Source of the DNA: Eledone cirrhosa | Taxonomy: Eukaryota | Direction of reading: 5' to 3' | Assembly (NCBI GenBank): GCA_964016885.1 | Contig: OZ024740.1 | Span: 156,922,001-156,986,000, forward strand | Length of the DNA stretch: 64,000 nucleotides | Part shown: piece after piece, positions 1 to 46,258 of the stretch | Layout of the letters: the number at the start of each line of letters is the position of its first letter | Position numbering within the stretch: the stretch's first letter is position 1 | Position numbers and translations under genes: made by a program | Notes under the pieces: model-generated | What the model saw: the letters and a program-made list of their open reading frames with translations, nothing else | What the model was told of the DNA's origin: nothing | The model's database searches: none

Positions 1-309
1 TTCATGCATACATAAATACATAAATACATACATCTATCTCTCTCTCAATATATATATACATACATGCATATACACATATACACAAGAACATTTACACAAG
101 AAAATACACACACATATATGTACATACATCCATAAATGATACATACATCCATAAATGCATAGATACATAGATACCTCCATAAATACTACATGCATACATA
201 AATACATTCATATACGCATACATGCATACAAACATAACACACACACACATACATACATACATACATACATACATACATACATACATACATACATACATAC
301 ATACATACA
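1..309. repeat. Degenerate then pure (TACA)n microsatellite, 5' flank of an R4/Dong-like insertion
   Basis: Uninterrupted TACA units at about 250-309; decayed units upstream. Confidence 0.95.
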
Positions 310-3300
310 ATGGCGACCGTTGTGGTCAGTGTCCGATAATTGGACGTGTGTAATTACGGCTTACATGAAGGCAACATACCATATATTGGAAAAAGTTGAG
401 CTACATTACGCGGTAAGATTACATACAATAATTCTACATAAGTGTTTGAACTGTAAGTGTGTTGTAAAACACCTATTTATATGAACGATACATACACTTA
501 TGATATATGAACGATACATACACTTTAACATATAAATGCAACGTTGTTATATTACATTTATAAAGAAATATAAAAGTAACGTTTTCGATTCAGAAACAAA
601 AATATAAGTGTTTGAACTGTGAATGTTGTGAATATGTTGTAGAACACCTATTTATATGAATGATACATAAACTTTAACATATAAATACAGCATTGTTATA
701 TTATATTACATTCGTAAAGGAATATACTAAGTAACGGTTCTTTTTGTTCTCGATTCAAACGATTCAAGAACAACGTTTAAAACACAGTTGTAGAATTAAA
801 AACTAACTGAAAAGAAATATTACCCAAGCTGTGAATAACTTTAAATTTGATTCTGACAGAACTTTGTCGTAACTTTTAAAGAAGATCATCGACTATTTAA
901 AAAAAATAAATACAAAATATTAGTGAATAGACGAACTCATCATGGCAAAAAGTACAAGTCTCCTTCGACCAAATCGCAATTACAACCGTTGTATACAGTG
1001 GAGCTACGAGCTTAACAAAGAATTATATGAAGCATACAAACAATCTGAACCCCAAAAGTTCGGTTTTATGCAAAGGCTAAAAACTTTATGGAACTCCAAA
1101 CACCCAGAATTAGACTTTTCTCCAAAGCATCTAAATGAACAGGCAAAACGTATCATTAGATGTAAATTGATACATCTAACGGAATCGAGTGATACTACAA
1201 ATACAGCCCTTGTAGACAACCACCCCACCTCCACTGACAGACAAAGAGAATGGCCGGCTAAATCTAACAGTGAACAGCTCACCAACAATTTTGCTGAAAT
1301 CCATCCCACTTCCACTGAAGAACAGCGAGAAAGGTCAGCTGACTCTAGTAGTAATTGTCACCACATCAACAACGAGGCTGCAATTCATGACTCTACTGAA
1401 CAAACAGAGCACCAAAAACTTGTGGGCACCCTACAAGTGATATGGAACGATATGTTTCAAGAGATACACAGCCTTAATGTGAGTGACAGACCATACAACA
1501 CTAGAGTCAGTAAAGAACCCACTAAATTGGAATTGGAAGCGGTGAACGAAATAGCTGGCAATTATCTGAAGGCTATACGATCTAAAGGTGTAGAAACGAC
1601 ATTTGAAACGCTCAATGTTTTGTTATATGTTTCAGCTGTCACATTGCTATCATATAACACACATCTAAAACCACGCAATCAAGATACAAACAGAAAGCCT
1701 GAACCAGCGTGGATGCGAAATTTAAAAACCAAAATTTTGTCCCTGAGACGAAGTATCTCACACATCGCAGTCGTTATGAAATGCAACATAGAGAGAAACT
1801 TCACACGACACCAGGAAGACCTAAAGAAAAAGTTAGAGAGACGATTTGGAGATACCAAATTTAAAACTTTGAACTCCAAATTACACCAGTTGAAACAACA
1901 ACTCACAGCTACAACAGAAAGACTAAAATATAAGTCAACAGCCCATAAACGACAAGTGCTAAATAGATTGTTTGCCAGAGATCCTAAATCAGTTTATCGC
2001 AGCTTCGGTGGCAAAAGCTCAATCCCTGTAAACGACACCCCTTCAAAAGAACAGGTTGAGAACTACTGGAGATCTGTATGGGAAACGGATGACGGATTCA
2101 ACAGACAAGCTAATTGGCTAAAACAACTGGAACAGGACTACTGCCAACATGTCCAGACAAAACAATATGACATAGATGGGTCAATACTGGAAACAGCTCT
2201 ACAGAAAATGTCGAATAGGAAATCGCCAGGCCCAGACCTCATTACAGGATACTGGTTGAAGAATTTCACTTTCTATCGGCAAGATCTCATACGGCTGTTT
2301 ACAGAAACCATTAAGGGCACACAAGAACTGCCCAGATGGTTATCAACTGCCACTACTCTCCTCATTCCCAAAAATAGCCAAACCACCCTTGCTAAAAATT
2401 ACCGCCCAATTGCCTGCCAAAACATCATGTATAAATTATATACTGGGTGCCTTAACCTGTTCTTACAGGATCACTGTCCTACCAACAACATCATAACACC
2501 TGAGCAAGCTGGTGGAAAGAGGGAGGTGTGGGGTTGCATAGATCACCTACTAACTAACAAAATGATTCAGGAAAAAACAACAAAGAATCGCAGAAACATG
2601 ACTGTCGTGTGGCTGGACTATCAAAAAGCATTTGATAGTGTACCTCATGGGTGGATTATTAAGGCTTTACAGTTAGCTAAAGTCCCACAACCATTGGTAG
2701 CTGCTGTTGAGCGCCTGACCAAGAACTGGTACACCAATTTGATCCTTAGAGGTGAGAAGGAGCAAGTTAAGACTGATAAGATACATTACCAGAAGGGCAT
2801 CTTTCAGGGTGATAGCTTGTCAGTGCTACTCTTCGTTCTCTCACTGAATCCACTATCTTACCTACTCAGGAAACAAGGTGGACAAAGAAGTGGGCCCAGA
2901 AGTATCTCCCATCTTTTCTTTGTTGATGACCTGAAGTTGTATGGGCCAAATATCAATGACATCAAGAAACAATTGGACCTCATTACACAATTTTCAACCG
3001 ACATCAAAATGAAATTTGGTGAGTCCAAGTGTGCATATTTGGCAGTAAAACGTGGAAGAGCTGTGCCCTCCTCTAGAAATCTAGATAGGAACGGCCTGAC
3101 AATACAACCTCTGCAGTCAGGTGTCAACTACAGATATCTTGGACAGGATGAGAATGTCAGATATGATGGACCCATAAATAAGGAGAGAACCAGAACTGAA
3201 TACCTCAGAAGAGTAAAAAAAATATGGTCATCAGAACTGTCAGCATACAACAAATACATTGCCCACAATACCTATGCTGTGCCAATTATAACGCCAACAT

Positions 3301-4531
3301 TTGGCCTACTGAACTGGTCATTGCAAGAACTAAGTGAGATGGATGTTAGAACTCGTAAACTTCTCAGTGTTACTGGGAACTTTAACATCAATGGTGATGT
3401 GGATAGGCTATACTTCTCACGCAAGGAAGGTGGCCGGGATCTAAAATCAATATTAACAACATATGAGACCCGGATAGTAACACTGAAGCAACACCTTCAA
3501 CAGAGGAAAAAGGTTGGCGACCATCTTGCTCAGGTTTATGAGCATGAAAAAAGAAATATCATTAGAATAGCGACTGATCTGGAGGAGAGATATGGAATAA
3601 AGCCTGATATAAATCTCTCACCCAGAGAAATCGGAAGATCCTATTCAATGTTCAAACAAGAAAAAAAAATTGACCAATTTACAGAGAAAGTTGTGCATGG
3701 ATACTTGAGGCGTAAAACACAGACCATAGAGGGGATAAACCACTCAAAAAGCCTGGCATGGAGTTCCGACAAGTTTATGACATCACACCTTGAGGGATAT
3801 CTCTATGCAATACAGGAACAAGAACTCCCTACCAAATATCTGCTGCACAAAAGAGGAGGGCCAGCAGCTGACAATAAATGTAGGCTATGTAAAACAAAGA
3901 TCGAGGATGTAAGCCACATTGTTGCCAGCTGCGAAAGAATGTCATCTCGCTACTACCTCCTCATGAGACACGATGGGATAGCTAGAACTATCTGGAACGC
4001 ACTTCGGAAAACAAAATTAACAACAAACGAGGAAGAATATATTGAGACAGATGGCACTAAGGAATACTGGTGGAACCTGAAAATAAAAACTGCCACCAAA
4101 TTAAAGCACAACCGGCCTGATATTGTAGTTTGGGACCACACATTGAAAACGTGTTCTGTTGTGGAGATCAGCTGCCCACTTGATGTAAACGTTGTCAGAA
4201 AAATACAGGAGAAGGAGGACATCTATGGACCATTGATGAGGAGCTTACAAATCCAGTATCCAAGATACACCTTTAGCTTCATACCCATCATTATTGGTGC
4301 TACGGGTTATATACCAATCCGCTTGGACCAAAGTATGACCGAACTTGGATTTGCGGACAAAAAGCGCAGCTCCCTAATTCATAGTCTACAAATGGCTGCG
4401 ATAGCTGGCACCTTCAAAATATGCAAAACATTCTTGCGATTCAAGGGATGACAATTTCTTTTCTTTTACAACCTTGCCACCAGGAAGGTGGCCGGTCAAA
4501 AAAATATACTCGAAATTAAGAGAAAGAGAAA
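310..4531 (+). mobile_element. Full-length R4/Dong-clade non-LTR retrotransposon (family A) inserted in (TACA)n
   Basis: About 630-bp 5' UTR with an internal repeat (ataagtgtttgaactg...aacacctatttatatgaa at ~439 and ~604), single RT-RLE ORF, ~80-bp 3' UTR, TACA arrays on both sides. Confidence 0.9.
942..4451 (+). CDS. Reverse transcriptase plus restriction-like endonuclease polyprotein (1169 aa, uninterrupted)
   Basis: Motifs KSPGPD, NYRPIAC, LDYQKAFDSVPH, GIFQGDSLS, LFFVDD, YRYLG; CCHC knuckle CRLC-x8-H-x4-C; RHD; PD-(D/E)xK nuclease RPDIVV...VEISCP...KEDIY. No APE domain. Confidence 0.93.
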   Translation: MAKSTSLLRPNRNYNRCIQWSYELNKELYEAYKQSEPQKFGFMQRLKTLWNSKHPELDFSPKHLNEQAKRIIRCKLIHLTESSDTTNTALVDNHPTSTDRQREWPAKSNSEQLTNNFAEIHPTSTEEQRERSADSSSNCHHINNEAAIHDSTEQTEHQKLVGTLQVIWNDMFQEIHSLNVSDRPYNTRVSKEPTKLELEAVNEIAGNYLKAIRSKGVETTFETLNVLLYVSAVTLLSYNTHLKPRNQDTNRKPEPAWMRNLKTKILSLRRSISHIAVVMKCNIERNFTRHQEDLKKKLERRFGDTKFKTLNSKLHQLKQQLTATTERLKYKSTAHKRQVLNRLFARDPKSVYRSFGGKSSIPVNDTPSKEQVENYWRSVWETDDGFNRQANWLKQLEQDYCQHVQTKQYDIDGSILETALQKMSNRKSPGPDLITGYWLKNFTFYRQDLIRLFTETIKGTQELPRWLSTATTLLIPKNSQTTLAKNYRPIACQNIMYKLYTGCLNLFLQDHCPTNNIITPEQAGGKREVWGCIDHLLTNKMIQEKTTKNRRNMTVVWLDYQKAFDSVPHGWIIKALQLAKVPQPLVAAVERLTKNWYTNLILRGEKEQVKTDKIHYQKGIFQGDSLSVLLFVLSLNPLSYLLRKQGGQRSGPRSISHLFFVDDLKLYGPNINDIKKQLDLITQFSTDIKMKFGESKCAYLAVKRGRAVPSSRNLDRNGLTIQPLQSGVNYRYLGQDENVRYDGPINKERTRTEYLRRVKKIWSSELSAYNKYIAHNTYAVPIITPTFGLLNWSLQELSEMDVRTRKLLSVTGNFNINGDVDRLYFSRKEGGRDLKSILTTYETRIVTLKQHLQQRKKVGDHLAQVYEHEKRNIIRIATDLEERYGIKPDINLSPREIGRSYSMFKQEKKIDQFTEKVVHGYLRRKTQTIEGINHSKSLAWSSDKFMTSHLEGYLYAIQEQELPTKYLLHKRGGPAADNKCRLCKTKIEDVSHIVASCERMSSRYYLLMRHDGIARTIWNALRKTKLTTNEEEYIETDGTKEYWWNLKIKTATKLKHNRPDIVVWDHTLKTCSVVEISCPLDVNVVRKIQEKEDIYGPLMRSLQIQYPRYTFSFIPIIIGATGYIPIRLDQSMTELGFADKKRSSLIHSLQMAAIAGTFKICKTFLRFKG

Positions 4532-4567
4532 ACATACATACATACATACATACATACATACATACAT

Positions 4568-5157
4568 GGTGGCTGCCAACTCGTTTTCGAGTACGGCCAC
4601 TACTTTATATCCATGTAGGAGAACTCCTACCGATGCGCTGAACAAGCGTGACTTTTTAGTCCAGCCAGCGACTTGAAAACTCTGGTACAAACACTACACT
4701 TGTGACAATTATTGACACATGGTACCATGTAACGACAAGTGCAGAGAGATCTCCAGACATAAAGCAATGCCTGTGCCGTGAAGCTTTTATAGTGAGCAAA
4801 GGCACTGCACAAAGCCAGTCCCACTCTCTTAACCAAGATGATATTTACCAAAAAGAATAACAAGTCAACATCATTGGATACCATCAGAGTTGCAGGTGTT
4901 ATATCAGAGTTTGCCTTCTCCTAGAATTCTGCCTTGACAAAGGCTAAGGGGTCATTTCTCCCGGTGATTTTGGATGGCCATTGACTCTTAAGAGCTCCTT
5001 TTCCCTTTGACAGGTTTTGTTTTTAGTCCTGCAGGATGTCCAAAGTCACCCTCCTCACCAAGAAACCTTGGTGGGGTTGCAAGTTTAGTCGCCAACGACC
5101 CGACCATGAGACAGGTTGTACTGGGATACATGTTACCAGTAGCACCAACTGGTGACC
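4568..5157 (-). mobile_element. Short non-autonomous RTE-derived element (5' UTR fused to 3' end), flanked by (ATGT)n on both sides
   Basis: The 3' part encodes a C2H2 remnant (CSVCTRVFKSLAGLKSH) like the last finger of the RTE at 5413. Its terminus (tggccgtactcgaaaacgagttggcagccacc) resembles that RTE's terminus (tggccatactcgataacgagggggcagccatc). The 5' part is GC-richer and hairpin-rich. Confidence 0.7.
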
Positions 5158-5231
5158 ATACATACATACATACATACATACATACATACATACATACATA
5201 CATACATACATACATAACATGCATGAATACA

Positions 5232-5335
5232 TGATGGCTGCCCCCTCGTTATCGAGTATGGCCATTGCACGAGAAAAAAGAAAAAAACATAGTAATAACA
5301 ATAATAATAATAATAACAACAATAATAATAACGAC

Positions 5336-5367
<32 letters not shown>

Positions 5368-7268
5368 CACACGCACATACATAAACATATCTATACACAT
5401 ACACGATAGCAATTAACAGCGCTGCGATTGAATATGGCTCTTTATCCCAGCCAATGATCTAAAATGTCTTGCACAGAGTCGGCAGCCAAAACATTCACTG
5501 GGAATAGCCGGCTGTGGTTGGAGTTCGTGTACTTTTGCATGTCGTTTGAGCCCTCCTGCTGATTTACATTCTCTACCACATGCTTGGCAAACGTGATGAG
5601 TAGCATCTCCAACAGCAGCCTGGTAGTCAACCACTGGTCTTACTTTATGACTGCGAAGATGACTTTCGCGTCCAGCTTTGCTTAGGCAGAGTCTCGCACA
5701 GACGCTGCATGTCAGCACCATAGGTAGGACCTTCGCTGTCTGGAAGTGCAAGAGCAATGCCCTTCCTCATATCCCGCTTTACTTTCTCGTATGCGATTCG
5801 AGATGCCTCAAAGGCAACTTTTCCCTCAAATACAGTCTTTCTCCATTTATTACGATCAGCAACAATATTCTCCCATGTATCAGCAGAGATGTTAGCGTCT
5901 TTCAGAGAGGCTTTCAAGGAATCCTTATACCTCTTTTTTGGTTTATGTGGCGGTCGTTTTCCTTTAACTAACTCTCCATAAAAGAGTTGTTTTGGTATTC
6001 TAGAATCCTTCATCCTAGCAAGGTGACCACTCCAACGGAGTCGTTGCTTAAGCACAAGAGCTTCTATACTGTCACACATAGAGCTTTCCAAAATCTCGAC
6101 ATCACTGATGTGGTGCCTCCAGTGAACACCATGGATCCGTCTGAGACACATCTGATGGAAACGTTCCAATTGCTTAAGGTGGTGTCGATATGTGACCCAG
6201 GTCTCGCAGGCATAAAGAAGAGAAGAGAGCACACATGCCTTGTACACCTTTACCTTTGTCTTCTTGCATATGCCTCGCCGACCCCAGAGTCGCCTTTCTA
6301 GCTTTCCTAAAGCATCACTTGCTTTCCTAATCCTGAGTGGGATTTCACTATCAAGGTTGCTGTATCGATTGACAGTGCTTCCCAGGTAGACAAACTGATC
6401 AACCACTCCAAGTCGTTGGTTCACTGTACTGCTTACCAGGGAGAGGTTGGTACATGACGACGGTCTTCTTGAGACTGACAGTCAATCCTAGGGCAGTGCA
6501 AGCATCAGAAAATGCATTCAAAATGTGCTGCATATCACTCTCTGTGTGCGCTACAAGATCGCAATCATCTGCATACAAGAAGTCTCTTATGATTGATGTA
6601 AATACTTTTGTTTTTGCAGCAAAGCGCCTGATGTTAAATATGCTGCCTCGGGTTCGATATCGGATATAAACACCATGCTCGCAATTCCTGAATGCAATAC
6701 AGAAAACCATTGCAAAGTATATGGCAAACAGGGTCGGTGCTGGAATATCCCTCTGTTTCACTCCGTTTCTTACTGAGATAGGCTCCAACATGTTACCTCC
6801 GACATTAACCCAAGCCTTTATGTCGTCATGGATAGACCTAACTAAAGCAAGGAAATTATCAGGGCAACCAAGTTTATGGAGAACCTTCCATAATGCATTA
6901 CTGTTAACAGTATCGAAAACTTTTGTTAGATCGACAAAAACCTGATACAGATCCAAACCTTGTTCCATGCATTTCTCCTGGAACTGTCTAGCTGAGATCA
7001 TATCAGTAGGGCCGCGTCCAGCACGAAAACCAGAGATTGACTTTCAGGAAGAACACAATTTGCAATATGTGTCAGCAGACGGTCCAGAAGCACCCTACAT
7101 AAAACTTTTCCTACGATAGAAAGCAATGATATACCTCTGTAGATTCCCACAATCATTCCTGTTACCCTTTCCCTTGTACAAGACCACCATTACTGCATCT
7201 ATCCAGTCCTCAGGTACGGATTCATTAGCCCATATCCTGCCAAACAAAGAGTGATGTCGAGATTTTGG
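5232..7268 (-). pseudogene. 5'-truncated, frameshifted RTE-clade LINE with C-terminal C2H2 zinc fingers and (ATGT)n tail
   Basis: Fragments YRGISLLS, FVDLTKVFDTV, GVKQRD, FLYADD, FVYLGS, LLYACETW, LRWSGHLARM, RIPKQLFYGEL and three C2H2 fingers (ORFs 6399-7001, 5645-6424, 5413-5757). Confidence 0.9.
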
Positions 7269-7269
7269 A

Positions 7270-10200
7270 AAAACGTATCATTAGATGTAAATTGATACAT
7301 CTAACGGAATCGAGTGATACTACAAATACAGCCCTTGTAGACAACCACCCCACCTCCACTGACAGACAAAGAGAATGGCCAGCTAAATCTAACAGTGAAC
7401 AGCTCACCAACAATTTTGCTGAAATTCATCCCACTTCCACTGAAGAACAGCGAGAAAGGTCAGCTGACTCTAGTAGTAATTGTCACCACATCAACAACGA
7501 GGCTGAAATTCATGACTCTACTGAACAAACAGAGCACCAAAAACTTGTGGGCTCCCTACAAGTGATATGGAATGATATGTTTCAAGAGATACACAGCCTT
7601 AATGTGAGTGACAGACCATACAACACTAGAGTCAGTAAAGAACCCACTAAATTGGAATTGGAAGCGGTGAACGAAATAGCTGGCAATTATCTGAAGGCTA
7701 TACGATCTAAAGGTGTAGAAACGACATTTGAAACTCTTAATGTTTTGTTATATGTTTCAGCTGTTACATTGCTATCATATAACACACATCTAAAACCACG
7801 CAATCAAGATACAAACAGAAAGCCTGAACCAGCGTGGATGCGAAATTTAAAAACCAAAATTTTGTCCCTGAGACGAAGTATCTCACACATCGCAGTCGTT
7901 ATGAAATGTAACATAGAGAGCAACTTCACACAACACCAGGAAGACCTAAAGAAAAAGTTAGAGAGAAGATTTGGAGATACAAAATTTAAAACTTTGAACT
8001 CCAAATTACACCAGTTGAAACAACAACTCACAGCTACAACAGAAAGACTAAAATATAAGTCAACAGCACATAAACGACAAGTGCTAAATAGATTGTTTGC
8101 CAGAGATCCTAAATCAGTTTATCGCAGCTTCGGTGGCAAAAGCTCAATCTCTGTAAATGACACCCCTTCAAAAGAACAGGTTGAGAGCTACTGGAGATCT
8201 GTATGGGAAACGGATGACGGATTCAACAGACAAGCTAATTGGCTAAAAGAACTGGAACAGGACTACTGCCAACATGTCCAGACAAAACAATATGACATAG
8301 ATGGGTCAATACTGGAAACAGCTCTACAGAAAATGTCGAATAGGAAATCGCCAGGCCCAGACCTCATTACAGGATACTGGTTGAAGAATTTCACTTTCTA
8401 TCGGCAAGATCTCATACGGCTGTTTACAGAAACCATTAAGGGCACACAAGAACTGCCCAGATGGTTATCAACTGCCTCTACTCTCCTCATTCCCCAAAAT
8501 AGCCAAACCACCCTTGCTAAAAATTACCGCCCAATTGCCTGCCAAAACATCATGTATAAATTATATACTGGGTGCCTTAACCTGTTCTTACAGGATCACT
8601 GTGCTACCAACAACATCATAACACCTGAGCAGGCTGGTGGAAAGAGGGAGGTGTGGGGTTGCATAGATCACCTACTAACTAACAAAATGATTCAGGAAAA
8701 AACAACAAAGAATCGCAGAAACATGACTGTCGTGTGGCTGGACTATCAAAAAGCATTTGATAGTGTACCTCATGGGTGGATTGTTAAGGCTTTACAGTTA
8801 GCTAAAGTCCCACAACCATTGGTAGCTGCCGTTGAACGCCTGACCAAGAACTGGTACACCAGTTTGATCCTTAGAGGTGAGAAGGAGCAGGTTAAGACTG
8901 ATAAGATACATTACCAGAAGGGCATCTTTCAGCGTGATAGCTTGTCAGTGCTACTCCTCGTTCTCTCACTGAATCCACTAGCTTACCAACTCAGGAAACA
9001 AGGTGGACAAAGAAGTGGGACCAGAAGTATCTCCCATCTTTTCTTTGTTGATGACCTGAAGTTGTATGGGCCAAATATCAATGACATCAAGAAACAATTG
9101 GACCTCATTACTAAGTGAGATGGATGTTAGAACTCGAAAACTTCTCAGTGTTACTGGGAACTTTAACATCAATGGTGATGTGGATAGGCTATACTTCTCA
9201 CGCAAGGAAGGTGGCCGGGGTCTAAAATCAATATTAACAACATATGAGACCCGGATAGTGACACTGAAGCAACACCTTCAACAGAGGAAAAAGGTTGGCA
9301 ACCATCTTGCCCAGGTTTATGACCATGAAAAAAGAAATATCATTAGAATAGCGACTGATCTGGAGGAGAGATATGGAATAAAGCCTGATATAAATCTCTC
9401 ACCCAGAGAAATCGGAAGATCCTATTCAATGTTCAAACAAGAGAAAAAAATTGACCAATTTACAGAAAAAGTTGTGCATGGATACTTGAGGCGTAAAACA
9501 CAGACCATAGAGGGGATAAACCACTCAAAAAGCCTGGCATGGAGTTCCGACAAGTTTATGACATCACACCTTGAGGGATATCTCTATGCAATACAGGAAC
9601 AAGAACTCCCTACCAAATATCTGCTTCACAAAAGAGGAGGGCCAGCAGCTGACAATAAATGTAGGCTATGTAAAACAAAGATCGAGGATGTAAGCCACAT
9701 TGTTGCCGGCTGCGAAAGAATGTCATCTCGCTACTACCTCCTCATGAGACACGATGGGATAGCTAGAACCATCTGGAACGCACTTCGGAAAACAAAATTA
9801 ACAACAAACGAGGAAGAATATATTGAGACAGATGGCACTAAGGAATACTGGTGGAACCTGAAAATAAAAACTGCCACCAAATTAAAGCACAACCGGCCTG
9901 ATGTTGTAGTTTGGGATCACACATTGAAAACGTGTTCTGTTGTGGAGATCAGCTGCCCACTTGATGTAAACGTTGTCAGAAAAATACAGGAGAAGGAGGA
10001 CATCTACGGACCATTGATGAGGAGTTTACAAATCCAGTATCCAAGATACACCTTTATCTTCATACCCATCATTATTGGTGCTACGGGTTATATACCAACC
10101 CGCTTGGACCAAAGTATGACTGAACTTGGATTTGCGGACAAAAAGCGCAGCTCCCTAATTCATAGTCTACAAATGGCTGCGATAGCTGGCACCTTCAACA

Positions 10201-10284
10201 TTTGCAAAACATTCTTGCGATTCAAGGGATGACAATTTCTTTTCTTTTACAAAAAAATATACTCGAAATTAAGAGAAAGAGAAA
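7270..10284 (+). mobile_element. R4/Dong family A copy 2: 5'-truncated, ~345-bp internal deletion at ~9110, 3' UTR deletion
   Basis: Near-identical to 1145-4531. The junction ctcattac|taagtgag skips about 2989-3330 of copy 1. QGD is changed to QRD. Ends in a TACA array. Confidence 0.93.
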
Positions 10285-10295
10285 ACATACACACA

Positions 10296-10326
<31 letters not shown>

Positions 10327-10358
10327 CATACATACATACATACATACAGACATACATA

Positions 10359-10755
10359 ATTTATGCCTGTGATTATTGGGGAACTGGGGTATGTTAGTAA
10401 CTGTCTCAATACAAATCTTGAGAAGCGAGGGTTCAGAGGAACAGAAAGAACACGACTAGTTAGGAAATTACAAGTACAATCCATTAATGGAACAGTAAAA
10501 ATATGTAAAGCATTCCAAAAATGTTGCATCTAATAACTGCATATACACATGTACAGATGCAAAGCATATACACATGCACACATACAACTCAAAACATACA
10601 CATCCACACATACAATAACATCCATATTTACACATGCATGCATACATAATCTACCTAGTTGATGTGTAAATTCCAATGAGAGAGTCTTGTGTCTATGTTA
10701 GAAACCGGCTCTCTCTCTACTGGTAAAATTTTGTGAAATTATAAAACCAGAAGAA
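10359..10755 (+). mobile_element. R4/Dong family B, short 3' fragment in (TACA)n
   Basis: Matches 45098-45498; encodes FMPVIIGELGYV...VKICKAFQKCCI; TACA arrays on both sides. Confidence 0.88.
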
Positions 10756-10798
10756 CATACATACATAACACACACACATACATACATACATACATACA

Positions 10799-10829
<31 letters not shown>

Positions 10830-10849
10830 TCATACATACATACATACAT

Positions 10850-10880
<31 letters not shown>

Positions 10881-10897
10881 TACATACATACATAACA

Positions 10898-12545
10898 CAG
10901 GGTGATAGCTTGTCAGTGCTACTCTTCGTTCTCTCACTAAATCCACTATCTTACCAACTCAGGAAACAAGGTGGACAAAGAAGTGGGTCCAGAAGTATCT
11001 CCCATCTTTTCTTTGTTGATGACCTGAAGTTGTATGGGCCAAATATCAATGACATCAAGAAACAATTGGACCTCATTACACAATTTTCAACAGACATAAA
11101 AATGAAATTTGGTGAGTCCAAGTGTGCATATTTGGCAGTAAAACGTGGAAGAGCTGTACCCTCCTCTAGAAATCTAGAGATGAATGGCCTGACAATACAA
11201 CCTCTACAGTCAGGTGACAACTACAGATATCTTGTACAGGATGAGGACACATAAATAAGGAGAGAACCAGAACTGAATACCTTAGAAGAGTAAAGAAAAT
11301 ATGGTTATCAGAACTGTCAGCATACAACAAATACATTGCCCACAATACTTATGCTGTGCCAATTCTAACGCCAACATTTGGCCTGCTGAACTGGTCATTG
11401 CAAGAGCTAAGTGAGATGGATGTTAGAACTCGCAAACTTTTCAGTGTTACTGGGAACTTTAACATCAATGGTGATGTGGATAGGCTATACTTCTCACGCA
11501 AGGAAGGTGGCATCATATGAGACCCGGATAGTAACACTGAAGCAACATCTTCAACAGAGGAAAAAGGTTGGCAACCATCTTGCCCAGGTTTATGAGCATG
11601 AAAAAAAATATCATTAGGATAGCCATTGATCTGGAGGAGAGATATGGAATAAAGCCTGATATAAATCTCTCACCCAGAGAAATCGGAAGATCCCATTCAA
11701 TGTTCAAACAAGATGAAAAAATTGACCAATTTACAGAAAAAGTTGTGCATGGATACTTGAGATACCACTCAAAAAGCCTGGCATGGAGTTCCGACAAGTT
11801 TATGACATCGCACCTTGAGGGATATCTCTATGAAATACAGGAACAAGAACTCCCTACCAAATATCTGCTGCACAAAAGGGGAGGGCCATGAGCTGACAAT
11901 AAATGTAGGCTATGTAAAACAAAGATCGAGGATGTAAGCCACATTGTTGCCAGCTGCGAAAGAATGTCATCTCGCTACTACCTCCTCATGAAATACGATG
12001 GGATAGCTAGAACCATCTGGAACGCACTTCGGAAAACAAAATTAACAACAAACGAGGAAGAATATATTGAGACAGATGGCACTAAGGAATACTGGTGGAA
12101 CCTGAAAATAAAAACTGCCACCAAATTAAAGCAAAACCGGCCTGATATTGTTGTTTGGGAACACACATTGAAAACGTGTTCTGTTGAGGAGATCAGCTGC
12201 CTACTTGTCAGAAAATACAGGAGAAGGAGGACATCTACGGACCATTGAAGAGGAGTTTACAAATCCAGTATCCAAGATACACCTTTAGCTTCATACCCAT
12301 CATTATTGGAGCTACAGGTTATATACCAACCCGCTTGGACCAAAGTATGACTGAACTTGGATTTGCGGACAAAGAGCGCATCTCCCTAATTCATAGTCTA
12401 CAAATGGCTGCGATAGCTGGCACCTTCAACATTTGCAAAATATTCTTGCGATTCAAGGGATGACAATTTCTTTTCTTTTACTACCTTGCCACCAGGAAGG
12501 TGGCCGGTCAAAAAGAATATACTCGAAATTAAGAGAAAGAGATAA
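10898..12545 (+). mobile_element. R4/Dong family A copy 3: 5'-truncated, several small deletions and stops
   Basis: Starts at QGDSLS, collinear with 2806-4531 apart from short deletions; flanked by TACA/GACA repeats. Confidence 0.92.
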
Positions 12546-12562
12546 CATAACACACATACATA

Positions 12563-12875
12563 TTTAGGAAGCTGCAAATAGAGTCCATTAATGGAATTGA
12601 AAAATATGTAAAACATTTCAGGAATTCAGCATGTAATAACTGCATATACACACGTATAGATACAGAAACATATGCACGTGTACATATATCATTGAAAAAA
12701 AAACAGATCCACGTATGCAATAACACCCATAGCCGCTTACACACACAAACACATACATACGTACTTATCTAGTTAGTGCTGTCTAAATTCCAACGAAAGA
12801 GTCTTGTTCTATGTCAGGACCGTCTCTCTCTCTCTCTCTTGGTGAAAATGTATGAAATTATAAAAACCTGAATAA
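12563..12875 (+). mobile_element. Older, diverged 3' fragment related to family B
   Basis: Aligns by eye to 10460-10755 (tccattaatgga...taataactgcatatacac...aaattcca..gagtcttg...tgaaattataaaa). Confidence 0.7.
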
Positions 12876-13470: not shown

Positions 13471-15800
13471 TTGTGTGTATACGTTATAGTGTATATGTTA
13501 TTGTGTATATGTTATTGTGTATATGCTATTGTGTATATGTTATTCTGTATACGTTATTGTGTATACGTTATTGTGTATATGTTATTGTGTATATGTTATT
13601 GTGTATATGTTATTGTGTATATGTTATTGTGTATACGTTATTGTGTATACGTTATTGTGTATATGTTATTGTGTATATGTTATTGTGTATACGTTATTGT
13701 GTATACGTTATTGTGTATATGTTATTGTGTATATGTTATTGTGTATACGTTATTGTGTATATGTTATTGTGTATATGTTATTGTGTATACGTTATTGTGT
13801 ATATGTTATTGTGTATATGTTATTGTGTATACGTTATTGTGTATATGTTATTGTGTATATGTTATTGTGTATACGTTATTGTGTATATGTAATTGTGTAT
13901 ATGTTATTGTGTATACGTTATTGTGTATATGTTATTGTGTATACGTTATTGTGTATATGTTATTGTGTATACGTTATTGTGTATACGTTATTGTGTATAT
14001 GTTATTGTGTATATGTTATTGTGTATACGTTATTGTGTATATATTATTGTGTATATGTTATTGTGTATATGTTATTGTGTATACGCTATTATGTATATGT
14101 TATTGTGTATATGTTATTGTGCATACGTTATTGTGTATATGTTATTGTGTATACGTTATTGTGTATATGTTATTGTGTATACGTCATTGTGTATATGTTA
14201 TTGTGTATATGTTATTGTGTATATGTTATTGTGTATATGTTATTGTGTATACGTTATTGTGCATATGTTATTGTGTATATGTTATTGTGTATATGTTATT
14301 GTGTATATGTTATTGTGTATATGTTATTGTGTATATGTTATTGTGTATACGCTATTATGTATATGTTATTGTGTATATGTTATTGTGCATACGTTATTGT
14401 GTATATGTTATTGTGTATACGTTATTGTGTATATGTTATTGTGTATACGTTATTGTGTATATGTTATTGTGTATATGTTATTGTGTATATGTTATTGTGT
14501 ATATGTTATTGTGTATATGTTATTGTCTATACGTTATTGTGTATATGTTATTGTGTATATGTTATTGTGTATACGTTATTGTGTATATGTTATTGTGTAT
14601 ACGTTATTGTGTATATGTTATTGTGTATATTTTATTGTGTATACGCTATTATGTATATGTTATTGTGTATATGTTATTGTGCATACGTTATTGTGTATAT
14701 GTTATTGTGTATACGTTATTGTGTATATGTTATTGTGTATATGTTATTGTGTATATTTTATTGTGTATACGTTATTGTGTATACGTTATTGCGTATACCT
14801 TATTGTGTATACGTTATTGTGTATATGTTATTGTGCATACGTTATTGTGTATATGTTATTGTGTATATGTTATTGTGCATACGTTATTGTGTATATGTTA
14901 TTGTGTATACGTTATTGTGTATATGTTATTGTGTATACGTTATTGTGTATATGTTATTGTGTATATGTTATTGTGTATATGTTATTGTGTATATGTTATT
15001 GTGTATACGTTATTGTGCATGTTATTGTGTATATGTTATTGTGTACATGTTATTGTGTATATGTTATTGTGTATATCTTATTGTGTATATGTTATTGTGT
15101 ATACGTTATTGTGTATACGTTATTGTGTATATGTTATTGTGTATATGTTATTGTGTATACGTTATTGTGTATATGTTATTGTGTATATGTTATTGTGTAT
15201 ATGTTATTGCGTATATGTTATTGTGTATACGTTATTGCGTATACGTTATCGTGTATACGTTATTGTGTATATGTTATTGTGTATATGTTATTGTGTATAC
15301 GTTATTGTGTATATGTTATTGTGTATACGTTATTGTGTATATGTTATTGTGTATACGTTATTGTGTATATGTTATTGTGTATACGTTATTGTGTATATGT
15401 TATTGTGTATATGTTATTGCGTATACGTTATTGTGTATATGTTATTGTGTATACGTTATTGTGTATATGTTATTCTGTATATGTTATTGCGTATATGTTA
15501 TTGTGTATATGTTATTGTGTATATGTTATTGTGTATATGTTATTGTGTATACGCTATTATGTATATGTTATTGTGTATATGTTATTGTGTGTATGTTATT
15601 GTGTATACGTTATTGTGTATATGTTATTGTGTATATGTTATTGTGTATATGTTATTGTGTATATGTTATTGTGTATACGTTATTGTGTATATGTTATTGT
15701 GTATACGTTATTGTGTATATGTTATTGTGTAAATGTTATTGTGTATATGTTATTGTGTATATGTTATTGTGTATATGTTATTGTGTATACGCTATTGTGT
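13471..15800. repeat. 14-bp minisatellite (GTTATTGTGTATAY), about 165 copies
   Basis: Head-to-tail units with two dominant variants ending TATAT or TATAC; the long ORFs here are repeat artefacts. Confidence 0.97.
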
Positions 15801-16696
15801 GTTTGTTATTTGATATTTATAATAGTGACATAATATCTTAATATGTTCTATTAATATTGTTATAATGATAGTGAGTAGTATTATATAATGATATTGGATG
15901 CAGTGTGATTTTATCAATGAGAATATCTTCTGTTTATGTCCATTTATGCTTTGAGTTCAGCCCTTGATTACAGGAAAGAGTAGAAGTCTACGTATGTATA
16001 TCCCCCTAACCCCTGATCGTGTCATAGGGGGCGCCACATTTTACATATGGCGTATCTAGGTTATTTTAAGCCTGGTGGAGCCCATCTGTTCTGTAGGTCT
16101 AAAAATAGCTGATTTCTTCCAGAGAAGGATAAAGAGAGTGAGAGAATGGAAGTGAGAAAGAGATATAGAGGAAGTATCGACTAGACTGATACTTTTTTTT
16201 ATCATCCGCGAATATAGGAAAAGCAAAGTTGACCATCGCAGAATTTGTACACAGAAAACAGAGCCGAAACGAATACCACAAAACATTCTATCCGACTTTC
16301 TAACGACTCTTCAATTCGCTGCTTTCAGAAATCTACATACTGGGATCGGATATAATAAACTATGTTCTTCAATCCCTGGTATGGCCACAATTGATCGATT
16401 GAAACCACTTTATGATAATGGGATTCCTAATAAACGACCAATGCCATGCATTTGGGAAGAGTTTATTTTCGATTATATCGATGTAGCAACTTGACTGATA
16501 TTTTATTTGAAATCAGACAATAAAACGATGTAACTAATTATAACGACTCATTTAATCTGTCAGTGTACTGGTTCTAGCGTTCACTGCCCTTTGAAGCAAA
16601 TAATTTGATATCAAGATAAAAGAAGACATTGGAAGTTACACTAATAGTTTGAAAGTTAGGAATGAACTGCTAAGTTGTTAATATGAATGTTTTAAA

Positions 16697-16947: not shown

Positions 16948-17662
<715 letters not shown>

Positions 17663-20336: not shown

Positions 20337-20795
20337 TTAAGATTTAGTCAGTAGTATACATTAAATCTCAATGAATAATATTGCTTAGAATATAATTCAG
20401 AGAACCTTATAAATAAAAATATAAAACCATCTTGATTAAAGTTCAGAATCAACATAGAGGCAAAACATTATTATAACGAAGATTTCATATCCACTAACTG
20501 TAGTTTCACAAATTAGATATCAGAATCAATCCTCCCAATTAATTAAGATGGCTAATTACCGCAAGAAATTATTTTATCATCAGAGAAGTAAAGCGCTAGG
20601 GAGGTTCTTTATTTTAGATTGCTTTACAGTGATCTTCCCTTTAGTCAATATATATATACATATAAGTATGTTTGTTTTGAAACAGTGAGCAAGTTTGAAA
20701 TTAGAAATAGAAGCTTTCACCGTATTTTTGACTAAAGAAATTTTAGCCTGATAATGGGGTTTAGAACCCTCAGAAAAATGGAAAAAAATGAGTAT

Positions 20796-20866
20796 TGACG
20801 TATATGGGAGTCGAACCCACATCTATGGTTATCCAGACCACTGTGCTACTATTACACCAACACATC
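20796..20866 (-). tRNA. tRNA-like cloverleaf with non-canonical anticodon loop (CUGGAUA)
   Basis: Acceptor gatgtgt/atacgtc, D arm gtgt-aatagta-gcac, anticodon stem gtggt/accat, T arm gtggg-TTCGACT-cccat, T-run about 8 nt downstream. Confidence 0.6.
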
Positions 20867-21157
20867 ACCCATCTCCTTCCATTCAAATTAGAAGCTACAT
20901 TCTTAGCAAATATAATGACAAGTAAGTATGTATGTTTGTTTTGAAACAGTGAGCTAGTTTGAAATTAGAAACAGAAGCTTTCACCGTATTTTTGACTAAA
21001 GAAATGTTAGCATGATAATGGGGTTTAGAACCCTCAGAAAAATGGAAAGCTTCTATTTCTAATTTCAAACTTGCTCACTGCTTCAAAACAAACATACTTA
21101 CTTGTCATTATACTTGCTAAGAATGTGAGCTTCTAATTTGAATAGAAGGAGAAGGGT

Positions 21158-21228
21158 GATGTGTTGGTGTGATGGTAGCACAGTGGTCTGGATAAGCAAA
21201 GATGTGGGTTCGACTCCCATATACGTCA
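21158..21228 (+). tRNA. Second tRNA-like cloverleaf, anticodon stem partly decayed
   Basis: A box TGGTGTGATGG, B box GGTTCGACTCC, downstream T-run. Confidence 0.55.
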
Positions 21229-21729
21229 ATACTCATCTTTTTCCATTTTTCTGAGGGTTCTAAACCCCATTATCAGGCTAAAATTTCTTTAGTCAAAAAT
21301 ACGATGAAAGCTTCTATTTCATATATATATATATATATATATAAAGTGTGAGATAGGGAAACAGACAGTGGGAGAGAAGTGATGGCACCTTAAGCCATCT
21401 CATTTCCTTATTAATTCTTATTTCTTTTAAATCAAAAGATGTTTTGAAAATCAGATATTGAGAAAAAATAAACATTTTTTCTTTTTTTCCTTTTCAATAA
21501 GAAACTAATAAATGTAGAGATGCTTTCAATTTATTTATTTGTTTATTTATTCATCTGTTTGCGTTTGCGAATAAAAACGTATATTAATGTATTTCTTTTA
21601 TAATGGAAGTGTTTAAGTATATAGTTTTTAGTTGCATTTGTAATTACATTTTCATCCTTGATGAATTAATACATCATTTGAAATGATCATATAATGATGC
21701 TGTACAATATTGATGCTTTCATTATTGAA

Positions 21730-23615: not shown

Positions 23616-23860
23616 AGAATGATTAAAAAAGAGGGTTTGCAAAAAGTACCTTTATAGCATGTACAAAAACTGATGTTAGCAAAGCCTGCTTCCTCCGGTT
23701 TGGATTATCAAAACATTTGTTATAAGTTGTTTTGATAACCCAAAATGGAGAAAGCAAGCTTTCCTAACATCAATTTTTAACATCAAAGTTATAAAGATCC
23801 TTTATATATATATATACCAGGTGCGTTTTACAAACCCTTTATTTTATCATTTTCCGTATA
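23612..23860. repeat. Old imperfect palindrome next to (TA)n
   Basis: aaaaactgatgttagcaaagcctgctt...ttatcaaaaca pairs with tgttttgataa...aagcaagctttcctaacatcaattttt; outer agggtttg/caaaccct. Confidence 0.7.
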
Positions 23861-24165: not shown

Positions 24166-27100
24166 CTATTATTGTTAATATTACTGCTGTATTAACTTCG
24201 GATATTTACCATGTGGTATTCTAATTCTTACGTATCTCTCTCGGTTATTTACCATGCGACCCTCAGTGCCCCCCCCCCCTCTCTATGCCTCTCTCTAGGA
24301 TTACTACCCTATCTCTACCTATTCAACCTCATTCATCTTGAAACTATTGAAGAGATAAGACACTTTTCCCCTTATCTGCTAAAATGTATCATTAGAGTTG
24401 ATTTCATTTCGTTCCGGCCACCCATCCATACAAATCTTCGAAGGTATCTTAGTTAGTTTTTATGACGTTATTATTGTTAATATTACTACTGTTTTCTGCT
24501 GTATTATTGATAAATTTTCGAAGGTATCTTAGTTCTTATGACGCTATTATTGTTAATATTACTGCTGTATTAACTTCGGATATTTACCATGCGGTATTCT
24601 AATTCTATCGTATCTCTCTCGGTTATTTACCATGCGACCCTCAGTACCTACCTCACAATTTCCCTCCAACCCACCCCCTCACACCACCATAGTCTATTCG
24701 ACCAATCAAACCTCAGCATGCCATTTCCACGGCTGCTGCTACTACTACCTAACTAACTCTCTCCTCCTCTGGCGCAGCCCAACACACCCTGCCATTATCC
24801 CACCACCACTGTTCTTCTAGCCCTCAATTTTCCCACCGTTATGGATGGATGAGCTGAGAATAGATTTGAGCAACTCTGAATCAATAGATGAAATATGAAT
24901 CTGCGAGCTACCAAGCACCCACGTGAAGCGCCAACCCAGAGACCCTCCCCTACGAGTGTCGACAAATGCCCAAAACTCCGAGTTGGTACCATCAATGTAG
25001 GCTCAATGAAAGGAAGAGCAGGAGAAATCGTAGAAATGCTAGAGCGAAAGGAAATTGACGTATGCTGTGTGCAAGAGACAAGATGGAGAGGAGAGTCTGC
25101 CAGAGTCCTCGTAGGAAAAAGTCGGTGCTACAAATTTTTCTGGGTGGGAAATGACGATGGGATAGGTGGTGTAGGTATACTACTAGCTGACAAGTGGGTA
25201 GATAAAGTAATCTCAGTGTACAGGGTAAACGCAAGAATCATTAAACTCAGACTAGTCCTGAATAAAACAATTACCACAATAATATCAGCTTACGCACCCC
25301 AATCGGGGCTGCCAGACGAACTTAAGGATAGGTTTTACGAGTCCCTAATACACACTACTGCTCTAACAGACGACAAGGACTTCCTAATCATCGCAGGAGA
25401 TTTTAACGGACACGTAGGTAAACACTGCGACGGCTTCAATAGAGTACATGGAGGCCATGGGGTTGGCACAAGGAATGAGGAAGGATTCAGACATCTAGAA
25501 TTCTGCGACGCCAATGACATGTCGATATGTAACACAAACTTTAAAAAACCCGACAACCATCTGATCACCTATAGATCAGGGGAGCACTCTAGTCAGTTAG
25601 ATTTTATCCTCATCAGAGGACGTGACAGATGGACGGTCGTAAACACAAAAGCCTTCCCTAGTGAGGAATGTACATCCCAACATAGCTTAGTTGTCAGCGA
25701 CCTCACGGTCAGAACTAGACGAACCCGGAAACAGAGGCCAACCTGGAGAAGAAAGATCTGGAAGCTGAAAGTCCCCTCAACCAGTAACAGATTTAAAGAT
25801 ATTTTACTCAACGCCTACGACAGTAAAGAAGAACAGATAGAGACATTTAATGTAGAAGAGAACTGAGAGTTCCTAAAAAATAATTTACTAGAGGCGACGG
25901 ATGAGGTCTGTGGCTGGAGTAAGACCTCAAGCAGGAGGAGAGTGACTTGGTGGTGGAACAATAAGGTAGATGAACTAGTCAAGGCCAAGAGACAGGCATG
26001 GAAAGAATGGAAGAACGGGGGGAGCAGGGTACATTACATAGAGACCAAGAGGGAAGCTAGGCGACAAGTATACTTAGCTAGGAGGGAAGCAGAGGATAGA
26101 AAATTCAAGCATGTCTTACAACGTGAGGACCAGAAACAGGAGGTATTCAAGATTGCGAGGCAGTGTGTCAGAGATAGTTGTGATGTCATTGGAGAGAAGT
26201 GTATCCGGAATGATAAAGGTGAGCTTGCCCTCACAAGTGCTGAGAAGAAAGATGCATGGAAGAGTCATTATGATAGATTACTAAATGAGGAGAATGCATG
26301 GGAAGAAGAGACCCTACCCCAAGTAGACCCTATAGAGGGACCAGCAGTACAAGTAAGCGGCAGCGTAGTAAGTAAGGCAATCAAAGATATGAAGATGGGG
26401 AAGGCAACCGGTCCATCGGGTATAGCTGCCGAGATGCTGAAGGCATCTGGGTCTGTAGGTCACACTATAACCACACGTATCGTTAACCAGGTAATACTAG
26501 AAGGGGCCATACCAAAAGATTGGTGCAGTAGCATCATTGTCAACTGCTACAAAGGTAAAGGCGATGCACTAGATAGAGGAAACTATAGAGGTATGAAGTT
26601 GATGGACCAGGTCATGAAAGTAACAGAAAGAGTTATAGCACAGCTGATTAGGGACCGGGTGAAAATAGACGAGATGCAATTTGGGTTTGTACCAGGAAGA
26701 GGCACCTCTGATGCCCTCTTCCTTGTGAGGCAATTACAGGAAAAGTACCTAGCTAAAAGTAAGCCACTCTACTTGGCATTTGTCGACCTTGAGAAAGCCT
26801 TTGACAGAGTTCCACGTGCTGTAATCTGGTGGGCTCTTAGAAAACTAGGAGTAGATGAATGGCTTGTGAAAGCGGTACAAGCCATGTATAGGGGAGCAGT
26901 TAGCAAAGTTAGGATTAGCAATGAGTATAGCGAGGAATTTAGCGTACAGGTTGGGGTCCACCAGGGCTCTGTTCTTAGCCCTCTCCTGTTCATCATAGTC
27001 CTGCAGGCAATAACGGAGGAGTTTAAGACCGGATGCCCATGGGAACTCCTGTATGCTGATGACCTCGCACTCATAGCTGAATCTATGGTAGAACTAGAGA

Positions 27101-33346: not shown

Positions 33347-33447
<101 letters not shown>

Positions 33448-33448
33448 T

Positions 33449-34636: not shown

Positions 34637-34691
<55 letters not shown>

Positions 34692-43779: not shown

Positions 43780-44925
43780 TATTTTTCCTATTATGTTGTT
43801 TAATCCTAAGTCAACACTGATCGAGCAGACCTTTCATCAAATGCATTCCAATCGTATAGGGAATTTGACTATTATTTCTCGCAGCATGACATATTATGTA
43901 GACTAAGTGAAAGGGATTTGAAGGGTTGTGTCAGGTTGTATAGGGCGATCGTAAATGAGTGATAGCGATTGTAGGAAGTTGGTTTTGTTTATTTAGACCC
44001 AGGTCATCCTTATTCAGAAGCAATCTAGCCTTGACCATTCCATTTGTCTAAGCATATATTATCTCTAAATTACTCACTATGTACTTCCTTTCATTAATAA
44101 ACAATAATTTGAGAGGGACTTCGCTGCTATATCTAGCAGGCCGAAGAACTAAGTAGAGGCATATTTATTAGATGGTGTGTAACCATTGTATGAGTGTGAC
44201 TGGTGAGCAGGCTCTGGTGTTACAAATAGTGCTGTGTTTTCTGACTCATAGGCTTTATGTAGCGAGACTAGGAGCCAATTCATGACGTAGCTAAAGCAGT
44301 ATTTTCGATATTTTATATGAACACTATAATATTGTAAGCAGCATATAATTTATATGCGTGTCAACGGGGAACCTCTATATGGTCAGTCAATCATCGAAAA
44401 TAGGCTGAGGAATTTCCTTCTTATCACACCCTAGAATCTCATGGTGTGGAGGAAATAATGTACTACTAAATACATTGTATCTAAAAAGATGGCACAGTCA
44501 TAATTGATTGCAGTGTTGGTCATGGTGATGCCGTTGATAATCGTGACGAGGGTGGTATCGGTGATGGTGATGGTGATGGTGTGAATGTGCTAGTTGTGTT
44601 GGTGATAGTGACGGTGTGTTCAATGGTGACTGTGTTGGTGGTAGCAGTGTTGCGGGTGGTAAACTTTTCATTTTAATTATATAAGGCGTTATCGATGCTC
44701 ACGTGGTCAACATCATCGGATGCTTCCGAAGCCGCATGTTTTTTTTTTCAGAGTTTCTCTCTCCTAGAAAGATGTTGTGACAACAACTGGGTGCATCTCA
44801 CACCCAATACATACATACATACATACATGCATGTATACATTCATATACATACATACATACATACATACATACATACATACATACATACATACATACATAC
44901 ATACATGCATGTATACATACATGCA

Positions 44926-45498
44926 GGCATAACAGACCAGATATTATTATAAGGGACTGGGAGAAGAAAACATGCACAGTAGTGGAAATAAGCTGCCCAG
45001 CAGATGCCAATATAATATCAAAGATTAGTGAAAAGGAGAATATTTATGCAGAATTGATGAGAAATCTGCAGATACTCTACCCTGATTACACCTTCAGATT
45101 TATGCCTGTGATTATTGGGGAACTGGGATATGTTAGTAACTGCCTCAATACAAATCTTGAGAAGCTAGGCTTCACAGGAACAGAAAGAACACAACTAGTT
45201 AGGAAACTACAAGTACAATCCATTAATGGAGCAGTAAAAATATGTAAAACATTCCAAAAATGTTGCATCTAATAACTGCACATACACATGTACAAATGCA
45301 AAGCATATATACATGCACACATACAACTCAAACCATACACATCCACACATACAATAACATCCATATCTACACATACATGCATACATACATATCTACCTAG
45401 TTGATGTTGTGTAAATTCCAATGAGCGTCTTGTGTCTATGTTAGAAACCGTCTCTCTCTCTATTGGTAAAACTTTGTGAAATTATAAAACCAGAAGAA
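44926..45498 (+). mobile_element. R4/Dong family B 3' fragment (RLE domain) in an isolated (TACA)n array
   Basis: HNRPDIII...VVEISCP...KENIY...MPVIIGELG; TACA repeats on both sides. Confidence 0.9.
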
Positions 45499-46258
45499 CA
45501 TACACACATACATACAGACATACAGACATACATTCATACATACATATATGCATATTGTGAAAAACCTGAGTTATGTCCACTGGATTAACAATGTGAAACA
45601 CCCTAGCGATAAAATACGAAGCTAAGGTCTCTCCATTGAATCGACATCACCATACGGAATCCTGTAAATACGCTTCCTTAATCATGAAACGACATTCAGA
45701 ATCCCAATATCGCTTCCTTAATCACGAAACGGCATTCAGATACCCAAATAAAAGACACCCCAGAAATTTGACAAATAAAATATGACAAGAACATAGATTT
45801 CTTCATCAAATGAAGGATACTAGAAAAATCTAGGCTCAAGACCTGCAGATTATGCAATGACGAGATAATATGGATATTGAATAATCTCCAAAACAATAAC
45901 AAACCACTTAACACACGTACAGAGTTCTTCTCGCGATGTTCTTATATGTCTTAGTACATTTTAAAGTACTGGCCACATTTAATATTGATTTATATCTTTC
46001 TTAATCAATCTATAGTTTCTAGCTCTCGCCCTCAAAATTATTAGTTAATTTAGCTTTTGTTCGCGCTATTTTCGATCAAATTTTCTCCACAAGACCATCC
46101 AGATTATTTTTCCTTCATTTGGAGCCCTTCTATCTTTACTTATTGTTCAGTATTTTCCGGTTCATTTTCATCGGCACAGGTTGAACCAGTTGGTCCTCAG
46201 GGCTAACGCAATGTAGGTACCTTTTATGGCACCGTTGCAGTTACTGGCCTTAATAATT

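Follow-up and report, generated by a model that had tools for sequence, protein, structure and literature searches.

Two R4/Dong-type retrotransposon families of Eledone cirrhosa found mostly inside (TACA)n repeats, with relatives flanked by (TACA)n or (TACT)n

When a retrotransposon lies beside a simple repeat, is the repeat its target or merely its own tail? The question is raised by a 64,000-nucleotide stretch of Eledone cirrhosa DNA (contig OZ024740.1, positions 156,922,001 to 156,986,000 of the forward strand; hereafter the window), a piece of microsatellite-rich animal DNA in which copies of two retrotransposon families, A and B, adjoin tracts of the tetranucleotide TACA. A preliminary description of the window had recognized three copies of each family, including a distant family B copy at 44926, and we confirm these copies (Table 1). 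We consider it probable that these are two R4/Dong-type families that lie mostly inside (TACA)n, likely insert by target-primed reverse transcription, and belong to a deep branch with (TACA)n- and (TACT)n-flanked relatives. That (TACA)n tracts are truly targeted is, in our judgment, very probable.

All six copies lie on the forward strand. Copy 2 of family A is 98%/96% identical to copy 1 and lacks copy-1 bases 2987-3328, and copy 3 is 92% identical to copy 1. The family B copies at 10359 and 12561 are 93% and 75% identical, respectively, to the copy at 44926. Similarity between the two families is undetectable in DNA, and their endonuclease domains are 55% identical over 109 residues; in the tree, family B clusters with the family A branch.

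The 5' TACA repeats described earlier for the copies at 310, 10359, 10898, and 44926 are indeed present, and five of the six copies have 5' TACA when a degenerate case (ACATAACACACATACATA at 12561) is included. At least three TACA units stand just upstream of 0.73% of plus-strand positions in the window and 0.03% of minus-strand positions. At the 0.73% rate, five of six has a probability of ~1e-10, a figure to be read with the reservation that copies nested in a single tract are not independent of one another. On the 3' side, TACA is clear in four of the six copies (4532, 10285, 10755, and 45499) and degenerate in copy 3, and the old family B copy ends at 12875 in ACTTACGCATAT with no TACA run. 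The claim that all copies end in TACA with the same polarity thus holds for four copies on the same strand, is weak for copy 3, and fails for the old family B copy. Target-site duplications are unreadable inside a perfect repeat. Across the whole window, all ten perfect ACAT-class tracts of at least 16 nt are on the plus strand (~5 independent tracts), which may be chance.

Other copies are represented in public reads. Over positions 2950-3500, the loose-end rows listed by the tool's own ranking (18 of 86) include 12 at 5' ends: seven are TACA-type, one is foreign and non-TACA, three are the element's own sequence, and one is a mixed restriction end. The seven TACA-type ends mark seven distinct points of truncation and come from X1, X7, and X23 (three of them, those of X23, from raw reads). 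The rows from a second set of public contigs were ranked in the same way (24 of 1729 rows listed). Among the rows listed, clear 5'-truncation junctions number seven with TACA versus two with other sequence (p = 4e-14 at a background of 0.73%, and 3e-8 at 5%). Many copies with non-TACA 5' flanks, the outcome named in the preliminary description as speaking for a mere tail, were therefore not encountered. The preference for TACA is strong, not absolute.

The tract around copy 1 offers separate evidence. The nine units behind copy 1 continue into the minus-strand 3' end of a long interspersed nuclear element (LINE) with a C2H2 motif (4568-4800), which we take from its protein motifs to be RTE-like. 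A sister element (5233-7249) shares its 38-nt terminus with this one (87%) and carries the same (ATGT)n tail, free of any Dong-type insertion. Copy 1 itself sits between 15 or more TACA units, degenerate over ~190 bp, and the nine units joined to the RTE-like 3' end. Because the sister has the same terminus and tail without an insertion, it is likely that copy 1 split an older RTE-type tail, the upstream part of which is now degenerate. Since copy 1 splits the tail of another element, the TACA repeat is more than copy 1's own tail. Microsatellites are known to arise from RTE tails (PMC2887409). In this genome, some landing sites appear to be (ATGT)n tails of opposite-strand RTE-like elements; a TACA tract at 48191-48258 has neither an RTE-like tail nor a Dong-type element adjoining it.

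We then considered distant relatives. A metagenome scan yielded 48 loci, 24 of which were examined; the rest are internal fragments or distant matches. Trees were built with FastTree and a quick IQ-TREE run, and family B was left out of the full-length trees as too short. Thirteen metagenome loci and family A form one clade with a support of 100, apart from (AAT)n- or (AAAT)n-flanked elements; relatives within the clade have 36-49% protein identity. TACA is found on both sides of L005, L006, and L013. TACT is found on both sides of L003, on the 5' side of L001, L002, and L010, and on the 3' side of L007, L008, L012, and L014 (L008 and L014 are near-identical), and the sequences of L004 and L015 end before any repeat and give no flank. 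The polarity of the repeat is the same in all 11 flanked loci of the clade. Two-sided flanks, seen in the window, among reads of other copies, and also in distant relatives, together with the split of a pre-existing tract, bear out the (TACA)n preference proposed in the preliminary description.

The fourth base of the repeat follows the sample set, not the lineage, which we regard as a lead rather than a rule. The ids of the TACA loci all have one prefix and those of the TACT loci a different one, yet either kind is found in two sub-branches. Both TACT and TACA units occur in the 5' flank of L010. A TACA-only clade was rejected by an approximately unbiased (AU) test (p-AU 3e-45; the tree left out L014, L025, and L027), and three target changes are found on the quick IQ-TREE tree. 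L007 was considered as a counter-example with TAA at its 5' side and TACT at its 3' side; its (AAT)17 would encode poly-Asn within an open frame that resembles a linker, and it was counted as uninformative. No relative was found in viral contigs, and prokaryote genomes gave one distant locus.

Some junctions of these loci are described here as observations in their own right. At the 5' junction of L006 (~77-115), a 16-nt tandem duplication spans the flank and the element start, as if the RNA had carried upstream repeat. In L001 (330-476), the family 3' stem-loop is followed by a TACT tract and then by a full-length element, so that tandem stacking is found in the TACT group too. In the distant relative L025 (~4400-4472), the element is followed by what is, judging from a sequence motif, presumably the end of an 18S rRNA gene.

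The window also holds two diverged TAA-type Dongs, arranged in tandem around (AAT)20, which served as a comparison group. Both fall outside the TAC[A/T] clade, with TAA-flanked elements, and the second is a 5'-truncated copy bordered at either end by (AAT)n. Its 5' end (39640-39668) is an exact 29-nt copy of flanking sequence at 41646-41674, ~130 bp past the 3' tract, and a template jump at insertion is the likely origin of this copy.

The assignment of copy 1 to the R4/Dong group is supported by its protein. The open 1169-residue reading frame reported for copy 1 runs from 942 to 4451 without interruption, and its closest named relative is from Argonauta hians (64% identical over the reverse transcriptase (RT) region). 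The elements have the features of R4/Dong-type non-long-terminal-repeat retrotransposons: one open reading frame (ORF) with a central RT, a C-terminal CCHC motif and PD-(D/E) restriction-like endonuclease, and, judging from the flanks, site-specific insertion into a microsatellite. No APE domain was matched by Pfam in the copy 1 ORF. The CCHC and the PD/E/K/Y residues of the endonuclease are invariant across 27 relatives, and the endonuclease core matches the R2 C-terminus by profile and fold. An RT phylogeny against R4, Dong, and Rex6 had also been proposed; in the RT tree, which has a weak root and does not include the named Repbase R4, Dong, and Rex6 sequences, family A belongs to a clade that is sister to elements flanked by TAA and to insect elements.

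At the N-terminus, residues 22-74 are modeled as a three-helix bundle with invariant W20 and W50, and there is no N-terminal zinc finger. Its fold matches are mostly Myb/SANT/trihelix chains with Z scores of only 5-6. For this domain, Pfam gave no match and Foldseek gave nothing at an E value of 0.001 or better. A Myb-like domain has been reported for R4/Dong elements (PMC7998251).

The difference between GGRDL in copy 1 and GGRGL in copy 2 that had been noticed earlier is real, and the G allele accounts for ~99% of contig depth and 185 of 188 raw reads. At 24 sites the public reads mostly differ from copy 1, and 11 of these alter a residue; 10 of the 11 changes, including D833, are private to copy 1 relative to the other window copies covering the site. 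The reading frame and catalytic motifs of copy 1 are intact, but it is an aged copy.

The 5' boundary of copy 1 was drawn from read depth in four public contig sets. Depth begins at ~310-350, and one contig covers 320-1398; the possibility that 310-941 lies outside the element was rejected on these grounds. Depth then climbs ~30-fold toward the 3' end, as expected with many 5'-truncated copies, summed depth not being equivalent to copy number. The GGAYGYR motif, present in 6 of 8 full-length 5' ends, compares with a mean of 0.24 and a maximum of 3 in shuffled sequences, the motif having been selected after the sequences were inspected. The AT-rich 5' untranslated region (UTR) of family A contains an imperfect direct repeat (~80%; window 438-584 versus 604-739). 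Folding of the 5' ends was no better than that of shuffles in five of five cases. Rfam found no ribozyme in the window or in nine loci, giving just repeat-driven mir-297 matches and two weak ones.

Most of the clade has a covarying 3' stem-loop in common. A stem of 6 bp capped by a 5-nt loop, with a further 2-bp stem outside it, is common to family A, family B, and six relatives; 94% of 86 cells are paired, and six of the eight pairs change on both sides. None of 500 shuffles reached this covariation, nor did any slid control, and slid controls were at most 46% paired. The model also matches sequences beyond its training set, namely L014 and L001 330-369, the latter right before the TACT tract (E 0.004). 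It found no match in the TAA Dongs, L013, or copy 2.

How does this branch compare with known systems? Dong of Bombyx mori, DongAg, DongBg, and Darwinula Dong1/2 (R4 clade; PMC3812793, PMC7998251) likewise have a single ORF, an RT, a restriction-like endonuclease, and microsatellite insertion, and their Myb-like N-terminus has a putative counterpart here. They differ in target: that of Dong, DongAg, and DongBg is TAA (PMC3812793), whereas this branch is found in (TACA)n/(TACT)n. TAA-flanked elements, including the two in the window, form a separate clade with ~29-34% identity to this branch. These elements probably work like Dong and are not Dong in the strict sense, which calls for (TAA)n. 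Waldo (WaldoAg1, WaldoAg2, and WaldoFs1) has an ACAY microsatellite target that includes the ACAT/TACA repeat (PMC3812793); it differs in belonging to the R1 clade, with an APE endonuclease and two ORFs, features that copy 1 lacks, and so reaches the same target via an unrelated enzyme. The R2 proteins (R2Bm and R2Tg; PDB 8gh6, 9dou, 9nl2, and 9nl3) are the best solved relatives (profile E 1e-54, fold E 3e-34), at ~17-19% identity; R2 differs in its 28S rDNA target and N-terminal zinc fingers, and we found no rRNA in the window and no N-terminal finger in the copy 1 ORF.

Dong-R4 elements are abundant in octopuses, with 51 families in O. vulgaris, five of them recently active (PMC9115989, PMC13282606), and the families described here may be among them. 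The available portions of these reports (PMC9115989, PMC13282606, PMC10294476) give no target, and none of the other microsatellite targets in those of PMC4640811 and PMC8869645 is TACA. In Fell et al. 2025, preferences of this kind were looked for in 4,464 assemblies (PMC13586686). No R4/Dong element that targets TACA or TACT was found in the literature searched; Repbase, Fell et al. 2025, and Kojima and Fujiwara 2004 lay beyond its reach and may list one. This is likely an undescribed, repeat-targeting TAC[A/T] branch of a known kind of retrotransposon.

The domain set, the flanks and their polarity, the 5' truncation, the separate clade, and the stem-loop covariation are observed; the steps of insertion can be proposed by analogy with R2. 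The protein would bind its own RNA at the 3' stem-loop, and the Myb-like domain and endonuclease would bind the TAC[A/T] repeat and nick its (TGTA)n strand. A read-through (ACAU)n RNA tail would then pair with the freed primer, and reverse transcription would often stop early. Pairing of the 3' RNA tail with the primer is required in avian R2 (PMC13580325). The best fit, in our view, is a protein that prefers a TAC-type repeat and an RNA tail that helps to set the fourth base. The preliminary description had proposed nucleases specific for TACA. Given the TACT flanks of relatives and a fourth base that tracks the sample set, a looser protein preference combined with tail annealing would fit at least as well. 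We favor this combination of core preference and tail over readings in which the protein alone or the RNA alone decides; the probabilities that we attach to the rivals overlap with that of our own reading and are not additive.

The strongest rival is strict protein specificity, in which all four bases of the repeat are recognized by each family's Myb-like domain and endonuclease, and switches between TACA and TACT are protein changes. We regard this as a serious contender that is nonetheless somewhat improbable. The fixed polarity and register of the 3' junction, the clade's own RxNRxY motif ahead of helix 1, and the argument that the N-terminal Myb-like domain directs Dong targeting (PMC7998251) are all in keeping with it, but it requires at least two independent switches that coincide with the sample set, and it sits poorly with the mixed units in the flank of L010. 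A nuclease without specificity, with pairing between the RNA tail and the nicked repeat setting the target so that an element keeps the repeat it last occupied, would account for a target that follows the sample set, and RNA homology arms can redirect some R2 proteins (PMC13586686; PMC13708176, on Fell et al. 2025). We think this unlikely: the 11 metagenome loci with flanks and the two window families all stay on TAC[A/T], although repeats of AT, AC, CT, and AAT are at least as common in the window, and the TAA clade stays apart. Very improbable, and largely refuted, is that the repeat is only a 3' tail and that 5' TACA reflects piled-up copies or chance in a repeat-rich genome, since the nesting of four window copies in one tract and the non-TACA 5' flanks of copy 2 and two read junctions are outweighed by two copies (copy 1 and that at 44926) that have 5' TACA although no member of the family precedes them, seven independent truncation points with TACA in reads, the split tail, and four relatives with the repeat on both sides.

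Several points weigh against our reading as a whole. The 5' junction of copy 2 (7267) is non-TACA: copy 2 there meets a 5'-truncated RTE-like element head to head via a 22-nt inverted filler, an arrangement suggestive of either a template jump or a deletion that was repaired. Non-TACA flanks are also found at X1 3225 and X4 2614. Among the 11 5' rows listed from the second set of public contigs, none is TACA (one is foreign and non-TACA, two of 8-9 nt are too short to assign, seven are element-like, and one lies outside the element), and the junction counts draw on the ranked part of the rows in both sets. Only two id groups and this genome stand behind the idea that target follows host, and the metagenome contigs are probably collapsed repeats. 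Fold support for the Myb-like domain is middling (Z 6.0 at best), the stem-loop alignment windows were chosen by eye, L013 runs into its tract with no match to the stem-loop, and the stem-loop is missing from copy 2. The evidence for targeting comes from sequence.

The window has other features as well. An APE-RT LINE with a PHD finger after the RT (24892-27971, plus strand) is followed by a (TGA)n run at 28301-28325. A 14-bp satellite of ~167 copies occupies 13474-15810, and a long inverted repeat (20704-21320) carries one tRNA-like match per arm (20796-20866, minus; 21158-21228, plus). Palindromic elements of 100-380 bp are numerous (17278-17380, 23643-23803, 30938-31193, 33438-33811, 34673-35036, and 48659-48828), and several adjoin (TA)n or (AAT)n. 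A 342-codon frame (61948-62976, plus strand) lies between two copies of a 546-bp inverted repeat region and presumably resembles a GIY-YIG/Penelope-like C-terminus.

Table 1. Features of families A and B and their surroundings, in window coordinates.
Feature	Position	Strand	Remarks
(TACA)n tract 5' of copy 1	121..309	+	15 perfect units at 250-309, degenerate farther upstream
Family A copy 1	310..4531	+	full length; 5' motif in common with relatives
GGACGTG motif near 5' end	342..348	+	GGAYGYR in 6 of 8 full-length 5' ends
Single ORF, 1169 aa	942..4451	+	open; model mean pLDDT (predicted local distance difference test) 89; R2 proteins are its best fold matches
N-terminal three-helix bundle, residues 22-74	1005..1163	+	Myb/SANT-like; follows lineage-typical RxNRxY motif
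Reverse transcriptase domain	2364..3071	+	Pfam RVT_1 E 6e-25; FVDD intact
Codon 833	3438..3440	+	GGRDL in copy 1 versus conserved GGRGL; private to copy 1
CCHC zinc knuckle	3879..3932	+	C980, C983, H992, C997; columns invariant
Restriction-like endonuclease core	4116..4226	+	P1059-D1060, E1075, K1091, Y1095; profile and fold match R2 C-terminus
3' UTR stem-loop	4472..4495	+	~40 nt before tail; compensatory changes across families
(ACAT)9 tract 3' of copy 1	4532..4567	+	doubles as (ATGT)n tail of next opposite-strand element
3' end of RTE-like LINE	4568..4800	-	C2H2 motif; 38-nt terminus in common with 5233; very high read depth
(ATGT)n tail of RTE-like element	5157..5232	-	no Dong-type insertion
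RTE-like LINE	5233..7249	-	5'-truncated; head to head with copy 2
22-nt filler at copy 2 5' junction	7250..7271	+	exact inverted copy of 6085-6106
Family A copy 2	7267..10284	+	5'-truncated, internal deletion, no 3' stem-loop, non-TACA 5' flank
(ACAT)n tract between copy 2 and B	10285..10358	+	
Family B copy	10359..10754	+	5'-truncated; 3' stem-loop present
(ACAT)n/(ACAG)n tract between B and copy 3	10755..10894	+	
Family A copy 3	10898..12545	+	5'-truncated, decayed
Family B old copy	12561..12875	+	5' TACA degenerate; no 3' TACA run
TAA-type Dongs (two)	35950-39580, 39640-41429	+	diverged, tandem around (AAT)20; comparison group
(ATAC)n tract 5' of distant B copy	44807..44922	+	
Family B copy	44926..45499	+	last 114 codons of endonuclease domain; TACA-type run 3'

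How site-specific retrotransposons switch targets is an open question, and one of relevance to R2-type gene-insertion tools. A single genome here houses sister clades that have TAA and TAC[A/T] targets, and the targets of close relatives differ by one base; such matched natural pairs would allow the share of the Myb-like domain to be separated from those of the nuclease and RNA tail, with the covarying stem-loop as a likely RNA handle. Two groups of LINEs are also linked, in that the tails of one appear to act as landing sites for the other. A bolder proposal, which we offer tentatively and consider rather unlikely as a whole, is that an uncatalogued, widespread sister lineage of Dong has a protein that reads the TAC core and a read-through tail that picks TACA or TACT, so that unrelated sub-lineages in one host converge on the host's repeat, which in octopods would come from RTE-like tails. 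If true, nature would here provide a site-specific retrotransposon whose target can be tuned by RNA.

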